This document shows positions 12,130 through 32,090 of a stretch of 64,000 nt of DNA, piece after piece. A program made the position numbers and the translations under genes. The DNA is from Candidatus Woesearchaeota archaeon (GTDB taxonomy: Archaea > Nanobdellota > Nanobdellia > Woesearchaeales > GW2011-AR4), in assembly GCA_016177615.1 (NCBI GenBank), contig JACOUX010000006.1, forward strand, positions 30,131 through 94,130, read 5' to 3'. The notes under the pieces are model-generated. The model saw only the letters and a program-made list of their open reading frames with translations, was not told where the DNA came from and did no database searches. Numbering within the stretch: the first letter of the stretch is position 1; every line of letters starts with the position of its first letter.

Positions 12130-12684
12130 ATGGTCAAGAAAGAAACTAAAAGAGATATAAAAGTAGTTAATATTGTTGTTTCTACATCTTTAAAGCACGA
12201 TATACCGCTTGAAAAGATGGCGGCAACCTTAAGCAATACAGAATATAATCCAGAACAGTTTCCTGGCCTTGTAATAAGAATTAAAGAGCCAAAAACGTCT
12301 GCATTGATATTCAGCTCAGGCAAGGTTGTATGTACTGGAGCAAGGTCGATGGACAAGGTTGAAGAGAGCATCAAGAAGATAATCAAGAGTCTTGAGAAGA
12401 TAAATGTCAAGATTACAGTTAAGCCAGAAATAAAAATACAGAATATTGTGGCTTCTGGAAGCGTCGGCATGGACCTGAACCTGAACACATTAGCCATGAA
12501 ACTGGAAAATACTGAATACGAACCTGAGCAGTTTCCTGGCCTTGTTTACAAGCTGACTGCCGCAAAAGCAACATTTTTGCTGTTCAGCAATGGAAAAATT
12601 GTGTGCACAGGCACGAAGAGCGAAAAGGAAGTGCATGCCGCGCTTGACAAGCTGGTAGAAAACCTGAAGAAGGCCAAGGCGTAA
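12130..12684 (+). CDS. tbp: TATA-box binding protein (TBP)
   Basis: Two direct repeats of the TBP fold (VVNIVVSTSL...EQFPGLVIRIKEPKTSALIFSSGKVVCTGARS / IQNIVASGSV...EQFPGLVYKLTAAKATFLLFSNGKIVCTGTKS). The track ORF starts at a TTG (12115); the ATG at 12130 is preferred. Confidence 0.9.
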   Translation: MVKKETKRDIKVVNIVVSTSLKHDIPLEKMAATLSNTEYNPEQFPGLVIRIKEPKTSALIFSSGKVVCTGARSMDKVEESIKKIIKSLEKINVKITVKPEIKIQNIVASGSVGMDLNLNTLAMKLENTEYEPEQFPGLVYKLTAAKATFLLFSNGKIVCTGTKSEKEVHAALDKLVENLKKAKA

Positions 12685-12769
12685 TTTAAATTTTTATCTA
12701 AAATCTGATTATCAGCCACTGGACATCCTTGCCTAAAATATTTAAACTTGGAGATGGAAGAGTGCTTGT

Positions 12770-15700
12770 ATGGAAATCAACGTTTTGGAGCAGATAAAGA
12801 GGTTTCAGGATTTTATAGACGGCAACTACTATAAGTCATTGCTGGAGAATGCAAGAAAAGGGGATAGGTTTCTTATTATAGATTTTATAGAGCTTTCAAA
12901 GTACGATCCTGACCTTGCTACTCAGCTTCTTGATGCTCCTGAAGAAACTATAAAGGCAGTGGAAAAGGCGATCGAGCAGTTTGATATTGAGGGAATTTCC
13001 AGATTCAGGATAAGGTTCCATAACCTGCCACAGGGCCAGCACACAAAGATCAGGGATATAAGAAGCAAGCATATATCGCGGCTTGTATATGTCGAAGGGC
13101 TGATAAGGCAAAAATCTGATGTAAGGCCTCAGGTTACCTCGGCAAAATTTGAATGCCCTGCCTGCGGAAATATCATAAATGTCCTCCAGCTTGAAGGAAC
13201 TTTCAAAGAGCCGGCCAGGTGCGGATGCGGGAGAAAGGGAAAGTTTGTGGAGATTGGGAAAGAGCTTGTTGATGCGCAGGGCATTGTGATGGAAGAGGTG
13301 TCTGAAAATCTTGAAGGCGGAGAGCAGCCAAAGCGCATAAGCGTACTGCTGACAGACGATCTTGTAAGCCCGATCAGCGAAAAAAGAACAGCTCCGGGAA
13401 GCAAGGTTGGGATTATTGGAATTGTAAAGGAAGTCCCAATAATCTCCAGAACAGGTGCCAAGTCTACAAAATTTGATTTGATGATCGAGGCAAACTACGT
13501 CAAGCCTACCCAGGACACGTTTTATGAGGTCATGGTAAGCGATGAAGAGGAAAAGCAAATTCTGGAAATAGCTAACGACCCCAGGGGGTACGAAAAGCTG
13601 ATCAATTCCATTGCCCCCTCTATTTATGGCTACGAGAAGATAAAAGAAGCCCTGCTATTGCAGCTTATGGGAGGCGTAAGGAAAGTCAGGGCCGATAATG
13701 TGATCAGCAGAGGGGACTGCCACATTTTGCTAGTCGGTGATCCTGGAAGCGGAAAAAGCGCATTGCTCAAAAGAATAACCACTTTTGCCCCAAAAGGGAG
13801 ATATGTATCGGGCAAAGGGATTTCAGGGGCCGGAATAACTGCCGCTGTTGTTCGCGACGAATTTCTCAAGGGATGGGCTCTTGAAGCCGGAGCAATGGTT
13901 CTCAGCAGCGACGGGGTTGTTTGTGTTGACGAGCTTGACAAGATGAGCAATGAAGACAGGGCAGCGATGCATGAGAGCCTGGAAAACCAAAGCTATCACT
14001 ATAATACAGAGATAATGCTGTCTGATGGAAGCACCTTTAAGATTGGCAAATTTGTGGAAGAACTAATTGATAATAATAGGGACGAAGTTATTTTTGGAAA
14101 AAATTGTGAAATATTGCCTGTAAATAACGTAGAGCTTCTAACAACAGATTTTGAGAAAATTTTCCCTACAAAAGCAACAATGGTTAGTAAGCATAAAGCG
14201 CCAGATTACTTTGTCAAAATAACATATTCTAATGGAAGATCCATTATGGTAACTCCAGAACATCCCGTATATGTTTTCTACAATGGCAAGATAAGTGAAA
14301 CTCCAGCAGAGCAAGTAAAACAGGGTTTATTGGCTCCTGCACCAAGAAAATTGCCTACTAAAAGTAAAAATGTGGAATTTATTCCTAGTGGGCTTAATCA
14401 TTTCAACAATAAGGAAATTGAGTTTCCCTCAAGCCTTAACAACGGTCTTGCTAGGCTTCTTGGTTATATAACAACCGAGGGTTATGCTTATTTCAGCACA
14501 CAAAACAGATATGCCGAGGTTGGTATCTCCAACACGAATCCTTTTATAATTGATGAGATGTCGCTTTTATTTAAAGAAACTTTTAAAACTACAGTAAATA
14601 TCAATGTTCAATTTGCTAATAGTAGATCAAAGGCAAAAAAAGACATTGCAACAGTAAGAATTTGCTCTAAGCCATTTTATAATTATATATTCTCAAATTT
14701 TCGGGGAAGTGCAAATGGTGCTAAAAACAAGTACATCAATAATAGTCTGAGATGTGCTGATAAAGAGTTTCAATTGGAGTTTCTGAGAACCGCTTTTAAA
14801 GGTGATGGTTTTGTTGATAGCAGAAGATTTGGTTATTCTACTTCGTCTCTTGAATTGGCAAAGGGCTATCAGGATTTATTGCTTCAGAACAATATCGGCA
14901 GTCGAATAGACACAGAAAAAAGAAATTCTACAGAATATTATAAGGTAGCAATTACTGGTACAGAAGGTGCTGGCTTGTTTCTCAATAACATAGCCGAGGA
15001 AGATGATCATAGAATAAAGAGATTAAGCGAATTTTATAATGCAAGCAAAAACAAGAAAAATGAAAGAGATATTCTGCCAAGGGAAATATTGATTGAAGTT
15101 AATTTGCTTCTAAAAAGCTTTAATTTGAGTGATGGATATTTTATTAATAACATAAATAGGGGATTTAACGCGCATAAAGATGTAGTTTTAGGTTATATAA
15201 GAAAAATTGAAGATAAGCTAAAAGAATGTGATAAAGCTGTCCAACTCAACAATCCTAAAAAACTTAGGAGGTTACTGAATATTGAAGTAAATTTCCTCGC
15301 CAGAAATGTCAATGTTTCTGCTGGGACAATATACAATATAGAGAAGAAAAATAATTCTGCCAGGTATCATGAGTTAGTCAGAACCATAAAAAAACTTGGC
15401 AACGAGAAGATACAATTTACCAAATCTAAGGTAAATTATATTTTGAAACTTATTAATTCTGAAATTAGATTTCTTTACGTCAAAAAGGTAGAGAAAATAA
15501 AAAATGATGGGATGGAATGGGTTTATGATGTTACCGTTGAGCCTACAAGGACTTTTATAAGCGAAGGGTTGGTTTTACATAATACAATCAGCATTTCAAA
15601 GGCAAACATACAGGCGACATTAATTGCAAGGACTACTGTTCTCGCTGCTGCAAACCCGAAATTCGGAAGGTTTGATCCTTATGCTATAATAGCCGACCAG

Positions 15701-28166: not shown

Positions 28167-28230
28167 TTCTGTAAGTGCCTAATCAGTTTAAGAAAATTAA
28201 AAGTGGAGATTATTCCCCTATGATAATAAA

Positions 28231-28372
28231 GTGGACAGCTTTTCTGTTTTCCCGTGCGGAGCACAGTACACACAGAAACGGAGGCTTGCTTAACTTCCGT
28301 GAACCCGCTAAAATGCGGACGCACTTTACTTTCGGGATGGGAACGGGTGAACCAAGCCCCTATGGCCGTCCA
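28231..28372 (-). rRNA. rrf: 5S ribosomal RNA (stand-alone gene), apparently with a ~29-nt hairpin insertion in loop C
   Basis: Minus strand reads UUGGACGGCCAUAGGGGCUUGGUUCACCCGUUCCCAUCCCGAA[AGUAAAGUGCGUCCGCAUUUUAGCGGGUU]CACGGAAGUUAAGCAAGCCUCCGUUUCUG...GUACUGUGCUCCGCACGGGAAAACAGAAAAGCUGUCCAC. This aligns with archaeal 5S (e.g. GGCGGCCAUAGCGGUGGGGUUACUCCCGUACCCAUCCCGAACACGGAAGAUAAGCCCACC...). Helix I (GGACGGCC/GGCUGUCC) and helix II (GGGGCUUG/CAAGCCUC) are complementary. GC-rich relative to surrounding intergenic DNA. Confidence 0.75.
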
Positions 28373-28476
28373 AGCTAAAAGGGAAGAAAACCCGGTTTAA
28401 AAATGTTGTGGAATTTTTTTGTTTTGCCTGAAAAGATTTTTAAAGCGAAGCTTATAATTTGCTCTTGGTGATTTAA

Positions 28477-28719
28477 ATGAGCACAGTTCCAGCGGTTCCA
28501 TTGGAGAGTAAAGTAATTGAGGTTGTAGTAACTGGTGACATAAGATATGATATTCAGAGGGCTATAGCCATGATGGGCTCCAGTTTCCCAGGCGCGCATT
28601 TGTCAGGCAAAGCATTGGCAAAAGCCCTGGATGAAAAGCTGCCAGAAGGAAAGTACATAGCCCATGCAACAGGGAATATTGTAGAGTATATTGAGCCTAA
28701 ACCAGCCAATTACAATTAA
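28477..28719 (+). CDS. Hypothetical small protein (80 aa)
   Basis: ORF only; no recognised motif. Confidence 0.35.
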   Translation: MSTVPAVPLESKVIEVVVTGDIRYDIQRAIAMMGSSFPGAHLSGKALAKALDEKLPEGKYIAHATGNIVEYIEPKPANYN

Positions 28720-28946
28720 AGAGCGGGAAAGAGCTATAAAAGCATTTTAATCTACTTCAAACAGTACAGATTCTAATGACTTATTTCATCCCTTATTACA
28801 TGAATTAAGATTATGGAAAAGTTCGCCATAACGGTGTTATATTCACTTTTTTTATCGCCTATAAGGTTGCTATCGCACACCGGAAATTTAGATTTGTTAT
28901 CTTCGCTTAAGATTGGTATCTTAAACAAACTTTTTTATTATACTAT

Positions 28947-28989
28947 GAATCGGGGGCTAACGATTAATAAAACGATAACGGTTCGGGGG
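28947..28989 (+). repeat. Left terminal inverted repeat (bipartite: 12-nt outer box + 10-nt inner box)
   Basis: gaatcgggggctaacgattaataaaacgataacggttcggggg. Confidence 0.7.
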
Positions 28990-29386
28990 TGAAAAATAGC
29001 TGCTGCTGAGGAATGGTGCAAGGCAAGGAAGATGAAATTTAGGATAATCTCAAGATACTAAAGCTGCTTCTGTTTTACTAATTTCTATTTTAAATTCTAG
29101 TCCGCATTTTTTGCATTTGTATGATCCTAAATCTTCAAATCTCTTTGATATAGGTTCAAATTTATGTTTATGATTTTCCACTACTACCACCTCTTTTGCT
29201 ATTCGCTTTTTATTTCAATGAGGTATTTTATAGGTATTAGTAGTTGGGGTTTATATAGTTCACGCAGAGATGTCCAGTGATACTCTAATATATAGATTAA
29301 AATAAATGAACTACAACTAAGAAATTAAGAAAAGAAAACTTTATATATGTGATATACTAGATTTTCTAAATAAATGGGTTTTTAGT

Positions 29387-30094
29387 ATGAATAAAATTTC
29401 TGAATTAGGAATAGAGAAAGTTACCCCTGATGAACTTATAGGCCCATTGAATGACATTGAGAAGAAGTTTGCTCCACCTTACCTTTTTCTTAAAGGAAAT
29501 CGTAAACTTATAGATAATCATCCTAGAGTCTCAATTATTGGTACTAGGCATCCTAGTGAGGGCGGAATAAATAACACTAGTAAATTAACGAAGTTTCTTC
29601 TTAAGAATGAAGTGGTTATTGTAAGTGGTCTTGCCCTAGGTATAGATACCGTGGCACATAAAACTGCGATTGAAAATGGTGGTAGAACCATAGCTGTGTT
29701 AGGTACGCCTCTTGATAGGTATTACCCAAAACAGAATAGTGATTTGCAGGATGAAATTGCGAGAGACAATTTAGTAATCTCACAATTTTCCTTAGGGTCA
29801 GCCATACAAAGGAAGAACTTCCCTCTACGTAATAGAACAATGGCATTGCTTTCTCATGTTTCAATTATTGTTGAAGCAGGGGAGGGTAGTGGAACAATTC
29901 ACCAAGGATGGGAAGCACTTCGTTTGGGTCGACCATTATTTCTTATTGAAGATATAATTAAGAATAAGAATCTAAAATGGCCACATAAATTAATTGGATA
30001 TGGTGCTAAAATTCTTCCAATTTCTCAAGCCAAATTTGTGCTTGAATCTTTACCAGTCCCCATGCTAGAGGCGGGGAACTATGCTACTTTCTGA
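29387..30094 (+). CDS. DprA/Smf-like Rossmann-fold (SLOG superfamily) protein; Rossmann core only, no SAM or wH domains
   Basis: RVSIIGTRHPSEGG...VVIVSGLALGIDTVAHKTAIENGGRTIAVLGTPLDRYYPKQN...NFPLRNRTMALLSHVSIIVEAGEGSGT matches the DprA Rossmann motifs (GxRxxS, SGxAxGID..AH, TIAVLG.G.D..YP, RNR, VVEA...SG). Confidence 0.8.
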   Translation: MNKISELGIEKVTPDELIGPLNDIEKKFAPPYLFLKGNRKLIDNHPRVSIIGTRHPSEGGINNTSKLTKFLLKNEVVIVSGLALGIDTVAHKTAIENGGRTIAVLGTPLDRYYPKQNSDLQDEIARDNLVISQFSLGSAIQRKNFPLRNRTMALLSHVSIIVEAGEGSGTIHQGWEALRLGRPLFLIEDIIKNKNLKWPHKLIGYGAKILPISQAKFVLESLPVPMLEAGNYATF

Positions 30095-30725
30095 ATTAGA
30101 ATTTGGTTCTTATCTAACTTATAGTCCCCGAGGAAAATCTGATCTTGCTAAGCGGTCTAAGAATATTATGATTTATCTTAAATCTGAAGGAAATTTTGGT
30201 AACCCACCCAAGTTTATGTCACAACTTGTTGCAGAAAGGATAAAGGAAAGTATTGACAAAATGCCATTCAATCATTTTTTTAGTCCAAATGTTTCATTAG
30301 TTCCTATACCCAAAAGTTCTCTGATGCAACCAAACACACTTTGGGTTTCTGAGAAAATTGCAAAGGCTCTATCAAAACAAGCATTTGGAGATTTTTATCC
30401 TTGTTTAAAAAGAATAAAACCATTACAAAAAGCAGCTTATTCAAATCCACCAAATAGGCCTAAAGCTATTGATCACTATAACAGTATAGAATGTCAACCA
30501 CTTGTTCATAGACCGAAAGAGATAGTTCTTATTGATGACATTATTACGCGTGGTTCCACTCTACTTGGATGTGCAAGTAGATTAAAGGAAATTTTTTCTG
30601 ATGTACCGATTCGGGCATTTGCAGTCATTAGAACGATGAGTGATCCTAACGACTTTACAAATATAGAAGACCCATGTATTGGAACGATAACTCTCTCTAA
30701 CAATGATACATTTAGAAAACCCTAA
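30081..30725 (+). CDS. Phosphoribosyltransferase (PRTase) domain protein, ComF-like without zinc finger
   Basis: PRPP-binding motif EIVLIDDIITRGSTL; overlaps the dprA-like gene by 14 nt in an operon. Confidence 0.7.
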   Translation: MLLSELEFGSYLTYSPRGKSDLAKRSKNIMIYLKSEGNFGNPPKFMSQLVAERIKESIDKMPFNHFFSPNVSLVPIPKSSLMQPNTLWVSEKIAKALSKQAFGDFYPCLKRIKPLQKAAYSNPPNRPKAIDHYNSIECQPLVHRPKEIVLIDDIITRGSTLLGCASRLKEIFSDVPIRAFAVIRTMSDPNDFTNIEDPCIGTITLSNNDTFRKP

Positions 30726-30776
30726 TATAAAATAAGTGAATAAAAGCTAATAATAATTCAATTAAGCTATTCTTCG

Positions 30777-30817
30777 CCCCCGAACCCCCAGGATATACTA
30801 ATTAAAGCCCCCGATTC
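30777..30817 (-). repeat. Right terminal inverted repeat
   Basis: plus strand cccccgaacccccaggatatactaattaaagcccccgattc; reverse complement gaatcgggggctttaattagtatatcctgggggttcggggg. Confidence 0.7.
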
Positions 30818-30932
30818 TTAATAAAAAAGTACTATAACACTAAATTTTCGGCGGTAAAAAACTCGATGTTCGCTACGCTCACTCGCCTATCGGTCGCCTA
30901 ACACTCGCAAGGCAAACTTTTTCTCGCTTCGC

Positions 30933-32090
30933 TCAAAAAAGTCTCGAGTGCTTCAAAATTTTTTCAGCTCTGAATTTTGCGGGTTGCCTCAAAATTCGAG
31001 GAAAAAATTTCTCGCCTCGAGCCAAATGTCGCCGGCCCTTCAGCTTTTCCTTTATCTCTTTCCAGGAAAACTTTTTGCTGGCCTTGCTGAGCTCATCAAG
31101 CACGTCCTTGATTAATCCATAATTATGGTAAATCAATTCGCCTTTCTGCCTTAGCTCGTGCCCTTCCTTTCCAAGCTCCTCTATTGTTTGCTTCTGCTGC
31201 CCAATTATTCTCTGCAGCGACTTTATCTGTTTGTCCTGCTCAGTTTCTTTTATTTCCCTGAACTGGGAATAAAAATGCCGCACAGCATCATTGAAGGTTT
31301 CAAATTTTGTTTTTTTGCTGTTTTTGTAGAAATTCAAGCCAAATGGAATGAAATCTATTAAGCTGTTGTCCGCGTCCAATACAGCATAAGGCTCTGTCTT
31401 GTTGTTGAGCAAGCTGTTAATGGAATCCTGCAATTGCTGCGCTTGCTTTTCATCAATGTTCTTGGGATTAAGATTTTTATCAACATTGGACATCAAGCAG
31501 AGCTCTTCAGAATACAACCCTCCCAGGCCAAGCTCCGTTGCCAGCGCAACCACAACACTTTCCTTTTTTGAATTTTTCATCAGCTCAGCAAGCTCATTAT
31601 TTTTCAAATCAAACATGTTAAAATCCATGATAGGATACGTGTACTTTAATTTTGGCTTGATAGACCTTTCCCTGAACTCATGATGCTCAAGTGCGTTTAT
31701 TATCACGTTATGGCTGTCGCAAAGGATTGCATTGCCCTTTCCGAAGAATTCTATGTAAAGATATTTATTTTCATCCTTGATATTAAACCCTAATTTAATT
31801 ATCCTTTCCGGCTTCAGCTGGCTTATCTCGCTTAAGAAATGCCCGTCCAAATGCTTTCTCAAAAGCATCCCGAAGCCAAGAGTCTCCCCATAATCTTCTT
31901 TGGTTTCTGCAGCGAATATGGACTGCCCGACACATATCCTCAGCAGCTTTTTGCCCAAATTCGCCTTGTGCAGGCTGAACATCAGGACAGTTTTCTCTGG
32001 CTGGTATATTTTGTCTATTCTTGAATCTTTAAGAGCTTCAAGCTCCATGACCAAAAAGTGCAGGTCCAATGAAGACAATTGCCTTTTCAT
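30933..32090 (-). CDS. NFACT-N/FbpA-family protein (archaeal RqcH/Tae2 homolog), apparently C-terminally truncated
   Basis: The N-terminus MKRQLSSLDLHFLVMELEALKDSRIDKIYQPEKTVLMFSLH matches NFACT-N, followed by a coiled coil. Length is only ~385 aa, with no NFACT-R or zinc-ribbon domain. The last ~35 codons (GRRHLARGEKFFPRILRQPAKFRAEKILKHSRLF) are encoded by atypical GC-rich repetitive DNA next to the insertion. Confidence 0.55.
   Translation of the reverse strand: MKRQLSSLDLHFLVMELEALKDSRIDKIYQPEKTVLMFSLHKANLGKKLLRICVGQSIFAAETKEDYGETLGFGMLLRKHLDGHFLSEISQLKPERIIKLGFNIKDENKYLYIEFFGKGNAILCDSHNVIINALEHHEFRERSIKPKLKYTYPIMDFNMFDLKNNELAELMKNSKKESVVVALATELGLGGLYSEELCLMSNVDKNLNPKNIDEKQAQQLQDSINSLLNNKTEPYAVLDADNSLIDFIPFGLNFYKNSKKTKFETFNDAVRHFYSQFREIKETEQDKQIKSLQRIIGQQKQTIEELGKEGHELRQKGELIYHNYGLIKDVLDELSKASKKFSWKEIKEKLKGRRHLARGEKFFPRILRQPAKFRAEKILKHSRLF

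Follow-up and report, generated by a model that had tools for sequence, protein, structure and literature searches.

A minimal ShosTA-type gene pair between two kinds of composite end modules in a Woesearchaeota chromosome

Genes and boxes of the inserted segment

The window analysed here, a 64-kb stretch of contig JACOUX010000006.1 of a Candidatus Woesearchaeota archaeon, carries a small group of genes between a 5S rRNA gene and a gene for an NFACT-family protein. Two of these genes form a minimal ShosTA-type toxin–antitoxin (TA)/abortive-infection pair, a variant of a described system, and they are bordered by GC-rich bipartite boxes in inverted orientation. The sequence-only reading, an earlier note made from the letters of the window, had described the boxes as terminal inverted repeats (TIRs) of a cassette at 28947-30817. 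They proved to lie sub-terminally in two end modules that are longer and unlike each other, called here the A-end and the B-end, and these limits are too narrow, the insert extending from about 28860 to 31033. Comparison loci, which are contigs of relatives, metagenomes or IMG/VR, are designated by L-numbers (L001 etc.). The features of the segment, including its open reading frames (ORFs) and a phosphoribosyltransferase (PRTase) gene, are as follows.

28860-28946 (+): outer B-end, with inward T-runs and a 28-bp palindrome of 11-6-11 layout (28902-28929); matches the L118 B-end at 76% identity (93 columns)
28947-28989 (+): B-end boxes, GAATCGGGGGCT, 21 nt, GGTTCGGGGG; nhmmer core model, E = 6.7e-10
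28991-29049 (no strand): conserved non-coding start of the cargo; 96.6% identical in L129, where homology starts exactly at 28991
29050-29190 (-): small ORF of 46 aa with an HxH...CxxC pattern; 98.6% nt-identical and aa-identical in L129 (L129:72-212, -)
29330-29347 (+): promoter-like purine-rich stretch and TTTATATA, 40 nt 5' of the ShosA ATG, as read from the sequence
29387-30094 (+): ShosA-like antitoxin, 235 aa, DprA Rossmann domain only; PADLOC ShosA model PDLC03961, 6.1e-72
30081-30725 (+): ShosT-like toxin, 214 aa, PRTase domain only; PADLOC ShosT model PDLC03962, 3.9e-22
30726-30776 (-): inner A-end, hairpin 3' arm AAGAATAGC and then TTAATTGAATTATTATTAGCTTTTATTCACTTATTTTAT; identity of 87% with L109 (140 nt) and of 86% with L121; abuts the ShosT stop
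30777-30817 (-): A-end boxes, GAATCGGGGGCT, 19 nt, GGTTCGGGGG; nhmmer, E = 1.2e-13
30818-31033 (-): outer A-end, T-run segment TTTTTTACCGCCGAAAATTTAGTGTTATAGTACTTTTTTATTAAG and element X (30857-31033); 93.8% identical to L012:12021-12193 and 97% over 117 nt to L099

The two-gene operon of a DprA-like protein and a PRTase was confirmed, with ORFs that overlap by 14 nt, and the PADLOC matches bear out its earlier assignment to a defence or conflict module. The ShosA-like protein also matched PADLOC PDLC02997 (2e-22) and Pfam DNA_processg_A (PF02481, 2.8e-55); among PDB sequences, DprA (3uqz, 1.3e-36) was a better match than ShosA (9vzo, 6.3e-22). Pfam and NCBIfam matches of the ShosT-like protein to PRTase and ComF families were weak. 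Its loop for phosphoribosyl pyrophosphate (PRPP), VLIDDIITRGST, is conserved: across 50 homologues, D153 and T156 were invariant and D152, R157, G158 and T160 were at least 90% conserved. The AlphaFold2 model of this PRTase had a mean predicted local distance difference test score (pLDDT) of 95.4. Foldseek, the structural check on the PRTase subtype, aligned the model with Helicobacter pylori ComF (7p0h, 2.4e-5) and with ShosT (8zvc/8zvd, 3-4e-4; 3.4e-4 for 8zvc; query TM-score, TMq, 0.51); the PRTase is ComF/ShosT-like.

ShosTA, with its prototype in E. coli APEC O1, is an experimentally characterised type IV TA/abortive-infection system in which ShosT is a PRPP-dependent PRTase/pyrophosphatase perturbing purine metabolism, and ShosA is a DprA-like binder of single-stranded DNA that neutralises ShosT indirectly via recombination proteins (PMC11961720, PMC12961424). 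The E. coli ShosT has an N-terminal Rossmann domain and the E. coli ShosA a SAM domain (PMC12961424). The pair in the window resembles this system in that a DprA-like antitoxin and a PRPP-binding PRTase toxin are adjacent in one operon and match the PADLOC models, with solved ShosT among the structural neighbours of the PRTase and ShosA among the PDB sequence matches. It differs in the length of ShosT (214 aa vs 424, without the N-terminal Rossmann domain) and of ShosA (235 aa vs 328, without the SAM domain), in the position of the ShosA-like gene upstream of the ShosT-like gene with the 14-nt overlap, in the extra conserved 46-aa ORF upstream on the opposite strand, and in the missing sequence-search link between the PRTase and solved ShosT. 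Since the PADLOC profiles are matched only at positions 29-224/237 (214-aa protein) and 92-280/303 (235-aa protein) and the extra domains of E. coli are lacking, the pair is a minimal variant. The identification of the genes is firm, with caveats that concern this minimal form and the function, for which the E. coli prototype serves as analogy. If the archaeal pair acts like that system, the PRTase would draw on PRPP to disrupt purine nucleotide metabolism, with the death of the cell as the outcome, the DprA-like, single-stranded-DNA-binding ShosA would counteract ShosT indirectly, and loss or diversion of ShosA during infection would release the toxin. As the host is archaeal, any recombination partner would be RadA rather than RecA.

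A search with ShosA returned thousands of homologues, many of them named Woesearchaeota, Nanoarchaeota and Aenigmarchaeota, and an overlapping PRTase gene of ~214 aa followed every ShosA homologue whose contig extends downstream. The ShosTA-like pair is common in DPANN archaea, contrary to the sequence-only reading, which had regarded it as unusual in archaea.

The limits of the cargo were given by two comparisons. In L129, an independent copy from another sample set with 88% nucleotide identity, homology begins at 28991, one base after the inner box plus T; the left junction differs, as do the preceding 12 nt. On the other side, the homology of the A-end to L109 stops at the ShosT stop codon (~30724), and the cargo therefore spans 28991 to ~30725. 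It would be a self-promoted module of three genes, the small conserved ORF and the minimal ShosTA pair. The stretch of ~400 bp once described as free of ORFs in fact holds this 46-aa ORF (29050-29190, -). Between the two cassette copies, the ORF and the preceding 59 nt are 97-99% identical vs 88.7% for ShosA, and a gene of 43 aa called on L001 corresponds to it. It had no Pfam or NCBIfam match. The ORF is probably functional and possibly encodes a zinc-binding protein; it belongs to the ShosTA module in close relatives and may be a third component or regulator of the archaeal variant. The element AAAGAAAAACCTTATATAT, resembling TTTATATA, lies upstream of ShosA homologues in L005 and L131, and the stretch at 29330-29347 would serve as the promoter.

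The outer box GAATCGGGGGCT is found at 28947-28958 (+) and 30806-30817 (-), and the inner box GGTTCGGGGG at 28980-28989 (+) and 30777-30786 (-), both as exact inverted copies at the positions first reported, 1.87 kb apart, with no other exact copy of either in the 64-kb window. The repeat arms extend to 21 nt (86% identity) at the outer box and to 22 nt (91%; 28980-29001 / 30765-30786) at the inner box, and ACTTTTTTATTA flanks both outer boxes on the outside. The GC content is 0.29-0.38 within the cassette vs 0.40-0.45 in the flanks. In such AT-rich DNA, inverted repeats may arise by chance, and lone 12-nt inverted pairs of any kind were frequent in first-order Markov simulations of the 5-kb region (mean 2.4 per simulation). 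However, any GC-rich 12-nt inverted pair appeared in 47/3000 simulations and one with a colinear second GC-rich 10-mer beside it in 3/3000, and the bipartite motif with extended flanking homology recurs in ~30 independent contigs. Chance origin of the box pair is refuted, and the probability we would leave to it is practically nil. Local inverted duplication was rejected as the origin of the repeat because each end is closest to ends of the same type in other contigs, nearer than to its partner in the window. Three further candidates were discarded on reading the letters: an rRNA-like processing stem or bulge-helix-bulge splice motif (the internal loop has 21/19 nt and there is no 3-4-3 bulge-helix-bulge), a C/D-box small RNA (the left copy has CTGA without a proper C box, the right copy has neither), and replication-origin or polar sequences of the origin recognition box/G-string or KOPS type (the 64 kb have no further copies of the boxes, and genes lie between them, not an AT-rich unwinding element).

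Each end combines inward hairpin/T-run units with two to four polar G5 boxes ([GA][AT]TCGGGGG); the A-end adjoins NFACT and the B-end adjoins p80, a small host gene, and the two are inverted to each other. The B-end spacer between the boxes, ACGATnAATAAAaCGATAA, is the type B spacer of L098, L100, L102, L103, L117 and L119. The palindrome at 28902-28929 is common to the B-ends of the window and L118, with changes on both arms, and has no counterpart in the A-end; it is a candidate recombinase core site and could equally be a terminator hairpin. The inner A-end contains an 11-10-11 palindrome that L109 and L121 retain. The inner box of most type A copies lies in the loop of a hairpin (GCTATTCT/AGAATAGC, 89% of cells paired), whose 5' arm is degenerate in the window.

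Element X, the outermost part of the A-end, is shared with L118 (1-330), L033 (8930-9172) and L016 (1114-1490); its start (AAAGTTCGTGAAACGTACAGAGCAAGGCGACC...) is conserved, the hairpins inserted in it vary, and its identity between unrelated contigs is 94-97%. These properties raise the possibility that the conserved ends, and X in particular, are structured non-coding RNA genes that act with or regulate defence islands, the boxes being parts of two such genes. On the - strand, X folds better than shuffled sequences (z = -3.4), and the stems are kept and the loops differ between the window and L012, as would suit an RNA gene, together with its conservation across contigs. Yet only the 5S rRNA passed Rfam thresholds when the boxes and X were searched (best sub-threshold match TD-2, 25 bits vs a cut-off of 48.7), the length (~190 to ~330 nt) and hairpin content of X vary widely, the inner-box hairpin shows no significant covariation, and in the window X, short of its first ~25 nt, is translated to give the NFACT C-terminal tail. 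An RNA gene is on balance improbable.

The variable slot between NFACT and the 5S rRNA gene

The sequence-only reading had named 5S rRNA and NFACT as flanks, and Rfam and Pfam agree. The host features on the two sides are the following.

28230-28373 (-): 5S rRNA gene, bordering the variable slot on the host side; Rfam RF00001, 58.2 bits, E = 1.3e-9
28477-28719 (+): p80, an 80-aa host gene convergent with NFACT; a homologue of 62% aa identity lies in L010 directly between NFACT and 5S
28818-28839 (+): motif AAAGTTCGCCATAACGGTGTTA, host-side sequence or outer B-end tip; 21/22 identical to the unoccupied p80-NFACT spacer of L010
30933-32120 (-; also delimited as 30933-32090): host NFACT-N gene; Pfam NFACT_N, 1.1e-51; junction with foreign DNA at 31033/31034

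The nearest NFACT relatives (59-68% aa identity) place the window in Woesearchaeota, and the synteny aminotransferase-cupin-NFACT is conserved among them. The homology of NFACT to 14 relatives breaks off at 31034-31045 and the reading frame runs on into foreign sequence, so that 32 codons from element X stand in place of the last ~19. The gene had appeared truncated, as would suit an insertion. The truncation amounts to the loss of these ~19 codons and is not gross: a ~370-aa NFACT-N-only protein, ending ...KEKLKGHKxIKEVNEKERKVVVEI before the stop, is present in all 14/14 relatives examined.

The sequence-only reading had suggested a search for empty sites, and four relatives have no insert between NFACT and 5S: NFACT is followed by 5S-homologous DNA within 36-100 nt in L008, L009 and L018, and by a p80 homologue and then 5S-homologous DNA in L010. 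These four are different species, not members of the same population, and exact look-ups of NFACT and p80 for a population-level empty site gave no match. Across the relatives, 5S-homologous DNA lies 36-450 nt downstream of NFACT, and in others the interval holds other material, e.g. ParE-type and PIN/ribbon-helix-helix (RHH) TA genes (L012, L014), which makes it a variable slot. Measured against L010, the insert runs from ~28860 to 31033, and the outer B-end (28860-28946) is absent from the empty site of that contig. Motifs AAAGTTCGTGAAAC, related to AAAGTTCGCCATAACGGTGTTA, follow the NFACT stop in L016, L033 and L006 and sit at both ends of L118. No tRNA or tmRNA that could be an integration target was found by ARAGORN in the window or in 40 loci. 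The segment of ~28860-31033 is probably an insert in the spacer between NFACT and p80-5S rRNA of a Woesearchaeota chromosome, a view that forms part of the overall explanation given below.

Several observations concern the host locus itself. The 5S rRNA match covers 144 nt vs the 120 positions of the model, which implies ~24 extra nt in the gene; the 5S-homologous DNA of L009 seems to have extra sequence in the same region, and the 5S copies of most relatives fall below the Rfam threshold. In this Woesearchaeota lineage (window, L006-L033), NFACT consists of NFACT-N and a coiled coil, with no adjoining NFACT-R or NFACT-C part seen. L012 has a 484-aa ORF directly downstream of its X-like element (12279-13733, +) with no significant Pfam match. 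Cumulative GC skew in the window peaks at ~29800-30200, where genes switch convergently from + on the left to - on the right; the peak could be mere gene orientation or a replication-related landmark.

A family of ends around defence cargo

JGI metagenome contigs were scanned for AATCGGGGGCT-N12-30-GGTTCGGGGG. The scan gave 43 stretches with the bipartite motif, of which ~30 were AT-rich with long flanking homology and 11 were GC-rich coding sequence or chance matches. The boxes are therefore not a private TIR of one cassette, as had been supposed, for the motif lies in ~30 AT-rich contigs within two longer end types. Occurrence at many unrelated loci had been named as a sign of ordinary regulatory palindromes; the boxes do occur so, but as polar borders of variable defence cargo. 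Among the GC-rich false positives, L087, L088, L089, L091, L093, L111, L113, L114, L116 and L126 are apparently protein-coding, conserved and frame-like (...CTGGAATCGGGGGCTCGAGTGCTCGACCTCGGCAGCGGTTCGGGGGAGATGCT...), and unrelated to the DPANN ends.

Type A, the right end of the window read on the - strand, has from outside to inside a tip like AAAGTTCGTGAAACGTACA, element X (150-330 nt), TTTTTTAYCGCCGAAAATTTATTGTTATCGTACTTTTTTATTAAG, the outer box, the inner box in the hairpin loop (GCTATTCT/AGAATAGC) and TTAATTGAATTATTATTAGCTTTAATTCACTTATTTTAT; ~100 nt later there regularly follow a promoter-like TATA, a palindrome and an RHH gene. Type B, the left end of the window, has a ACGATAAATAAAcgGATAA-like spacer between the boxes and often additional tandem outer boxes 35-50 nt upstream. 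The A-end of the window is 97% identical to L099 (117 nt), 87% to L109 (140 nt) and 86% to L118, and its B-end 76% to that of L118. Between contigs, the ends have diverged far less than host genes have between related genomes; at 86-97% identity across contigs, against ~65% for core proteins, they have moved horizontally. The element GACAAAGAGGCAC was observed 20-60 nt outside the first box in L097, L102, L103, L104, L115, L117, L119 and L127; it is absent from the ends in the window, and together with a box it had no match in IMG/VR.

Facing A- and B-ends were found in four contigs, including the window; L098 and L106 adjoin each other on a single contig, with an intact ORF across the junction. 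The units and their cargo are listed below (MNT/HEPN, nucleotidyltransferase/HEPN pair).

Window unit, 1.7 kb: ShosTA
L107 unit, 3 kb: MNT/HEPN, RHH and DUF1643, with an internal decayed A unit
L118 unit, 9.7 kb: RadC, large PIN-like, ASCH-like, type I hsdS/M/R and a Cas4-like nuclease
L098+L106 unit, ~9.3 kb: RHH, methyltransferase, large ATPase-like proteins and Cas4-like

The same ends thus bracket other defence cargo in other, DPANN-like contigs, which upholds the earlier view of the boxes as borders of a cargo-carrying unit without a recombinase of its own. Across all loci, the ORFs on the inner side of the boxes (n=82) are dominated by DNA methylases, restriction subunits, MNT/HEPN pairs, RadC, GmrSD and CARF, and those on the outer side (n=64) are mostly housekeeping genes, e.g. 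FeoAB, FolD, transketolase and eIF-2B, along with two XerA-type recombinases and two DDE transposases (DDE_Tnp_1), of which the one checked (L124) is of the IS1182 family. Ends of the same family adjoin differing outer genes in different contigs, and no identical element was seen at two sites. A box lies within 400 nt of a contig end in 17/25 whole contigs vs 8.5 expected, and a Logan contig with the cassette of the window breaks at 28823 and 30886; both are as would be expected of sequences that occur repeatedly in the communities.

A gene for a Cas4-like protein (PD-(D/E)XK, CxxC...CxxC), absent from the window, recurs in box-bounded units, in two of them near the B-end. Its copies are these.

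L118:9349-10032
L098+L106 junction (Ga0257125_1002430, 1041-1727)
L097:1371-1736

The two XerA-type tyrosine recombinase genes (L115:3648-4466, -; L117:1592-2401, +) lie 320-410 nt outside type B box clusters and score 204-209 bits with NCBIfam recomb_XerA_Arch, just under the cut-off of 220. With these XerA-like proteins as tblastn queries, no tyrosine recombinase was found in the window, in agreement with the earlier remark that no integrase is present.

The strict pattern had 0 matches in IMG/VR, and the loose pattern had 36, mostly GC-rich and without flanking similarity to the end family; PLSDB gave only a 72-nt match to DprA and INPHARED nothing. A viral or plasmid origin was rejected: the end family is absent from all three databases. 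Four GC-rich IMG/VR contigs (L143, L145, L161, L165) carry iteron-like tandem GTTTCCA[CT]GTTCGGGGG repeats that are unrelated to the window.

What was observed (the gene identity, the anatomy and recurrence of the ends, the contrast between inside and outside genes and the empty sites) is best explained, and probably so in our judgement, as a ShosTA insert in a trans-mobilised A/B-end cassette family that carries no recombinase. The ends would belong to recombinase-less, cargo-carrying cassettes that are moved or exchanged by a site-specific recombinase or transposase supplied in trans and recognising the boxes, and the stacks of T-runs would shield toxic cargo from read-through transcription. 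The polar multi-box ends of two types, their fixed orientation beside the NFACT stop (L016, L033 and the window), their horizontal mobility, the variable defence cargo and the lack of an internal recombinase favour trans-mobilised cassettes; our best guess is that a trans-acting enzyme works on the ends, and both its nature and the role of the boxes as its sites of action are inferred. A/B ends around differing defence cargo suggest an undescribed way of shuttling defence genes. A more specific proposal is put forward only tentatively, at less than even odds: the G5-box ends may define an undescribed DPANN mobile cassette family of two-ended, recombinase-less carriers of defence and TA genes, which would insert in fixed orientation beside conserved genes and be moved in trans by a host enzyme, e.g. 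of the XerA type, with the boxes or the 28-bp palindrome as its sites; they would then be the archaeal equivalent of dif modules or Tn7-like defence carriers.

A number of results weigh against trans-mobilised cassettes. The acting enzyme was not identified: there is no recombinase or transposase within any of the four complete units and no cognate transposase among the loci examined. Neither a target-site duplication nor an excision junction was seen, the NFACT-side tip being deleted in the window, and the presumed tips of L118, whose termini are approximate, show no direct repeat. A units also occur in direct orientation (L121/L122; internal unit of L107), and the inner-box hairpin is not backed by significant covariation. 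A-end-like sequence lies 0-5 nt after the NFACT stop in L006, L007, L016 and L033, and the ends could therefore be long-resident at the locus. ShosTA homologues at 71-80% nucleotide identity sit in other contexts without boxes; together with the other left junction of L129, this means that ShosTA does not form a fixed unit with the boxes, and it is one of many possible passengers of the ends. As for the cargo, single-sequence and profile searches of the PDB with the PRTase did not retrieve solved ShosT; its assignment depends on the PADLOC model and on a structural alignment of modest quality (TMq 0.51, 14% identity).

The chief competing explanation is a fixed hotspot, in which A and B are resident insulators or regulatory boundaries made of terminator stacks, protein-binding boxes and promoters. 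Cargo would be swapped by homologous recombination through the ends after DNA transfer, and the boxes would not be sites of recombination or transposition. Both ends do have several inward hairpin and T-run units, the TATA, palindrome and RHH gene behind type A units suit a regulatory boundary, the A-end-like sequence just past the NFACT stop in four relatives suggests long residence, no unit contains a recombinase, and highly identical ends would serve as homology arms. But the identity of 86-97% between ends vs ~65% between core proteins indicates that the ends move with the cargo, not with the host backbone; the same ends stand beside differing outer genes (xerA/FeoB, FolD, transketolase, RecJ-like), and at this site the ends are wholly missing from several relatives. 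We consider the hotspot unlikely, though less so than any other rival.

A relation to integrons was also considered, with the box units as attC sites. Integrons and attC arrays in archaea, including Nanoarchaeota, are rich in TA and restriction–modification cassettes (PMC9668308), direct A-unit arrays separate TA cassettes in L121, L122 and L107, and the XerA-type recombinases beside type B boxes in L115 and L117 match an NCBIfam model named 'site-specific tyrosine recombinase/integron integrase'. The anatomy largely refutes this idea, which is very improbable: the units lack the attC architecture (R''/L''...L'/R' imperfect palindrome, RYYYAAC and GTTRRRY cores) and have an 8-bp stem as their sole self-complementarity, the sites are inverted around the cargo, the cassettes hold several genes on both strands with their own promoters, and the XerA-like queries detected no integrase in the window.

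Significance and comparison with known mobile systems

How DPANN archaea, with their tiny genomes and dependence on hosts, acquire and trade antiviral genes is little understood. Should the ends be handles of trans-mobilised cassettes, they would provide a sequence signature for defence islands in DPANN genomes, a route to the responsible enzyme and an archaeal parallel to dif modules, integrons and Tn7-like defence carriers. If they are insulators of a fixed hotspot, the result would be a modest annotation of a known defence system. In either case, a ShosTA stripped down to a PRTase domain and a DprA Rossmann domain and widespread in DPANN is a compact test case for the essential parts of the system.

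The cassettes resemble dif (pdif) modules of Acinetobacter and other Xer-dependent elements, which are recombinase-less units with inverted short sites and TA or adaptive genes that are shuffled between locations (PMC6449649, PMC13141974). A XerA-type gene adjoins type B ends at two of the loci studied here; the dif site of Thermococcales does not adjoin xerA (PMC2958812). Unlike the 28-bp XerC/XerD sites, the ends are composite, measure 180-450 nt and come in two kinds, the 11-6-11 palindrome is limited to the B-ends of the window and L118, and the setting is an archaeal chromosome, not a plasmid.

With Tn7-like elements the cassettes share asymmetric ends with several directly repeated boxes that look like protein-binding sites, a fixed orientation right after the stop of a conserved gene (NFACT in L016, L033 and the window) and a cargo dominated by defence genes. 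They differ in having no tnsABC-like genes or transposase inside the units, no visible 5-bp duplication and no TGT...ACA termini; families of the tnsA/B/C type are absent from the 25 most frequent inner-side Pfam families and from the ORFs of the L107 and L118 units. To our knowledge, Tn7-like elements are not known in archaea.

MITEs (miniature transposable elements with inverted repeats) and other non-autonomous TIR elements are similar in their inverted ends, the lack of a transposase, the many metagenome copies and the assembly breaks at the ends. The ends described here are much longer, of two types and not simple TIRs, and they also occur in direct arrays; no target-site duplication was found and no matching autonomous element is known.

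The sites of archaeal integron cassettes and of clusters of attC sites lacking integrases (CALINs) have an attC structure that the ends do not have, and the ends differ further in being inverted around multi-gene cassettes with their own promoters. What the two have in common are recombinase-less arrays of TA and restriction–modification genes between repeated sites in DPANN archaea (PMC9668308).

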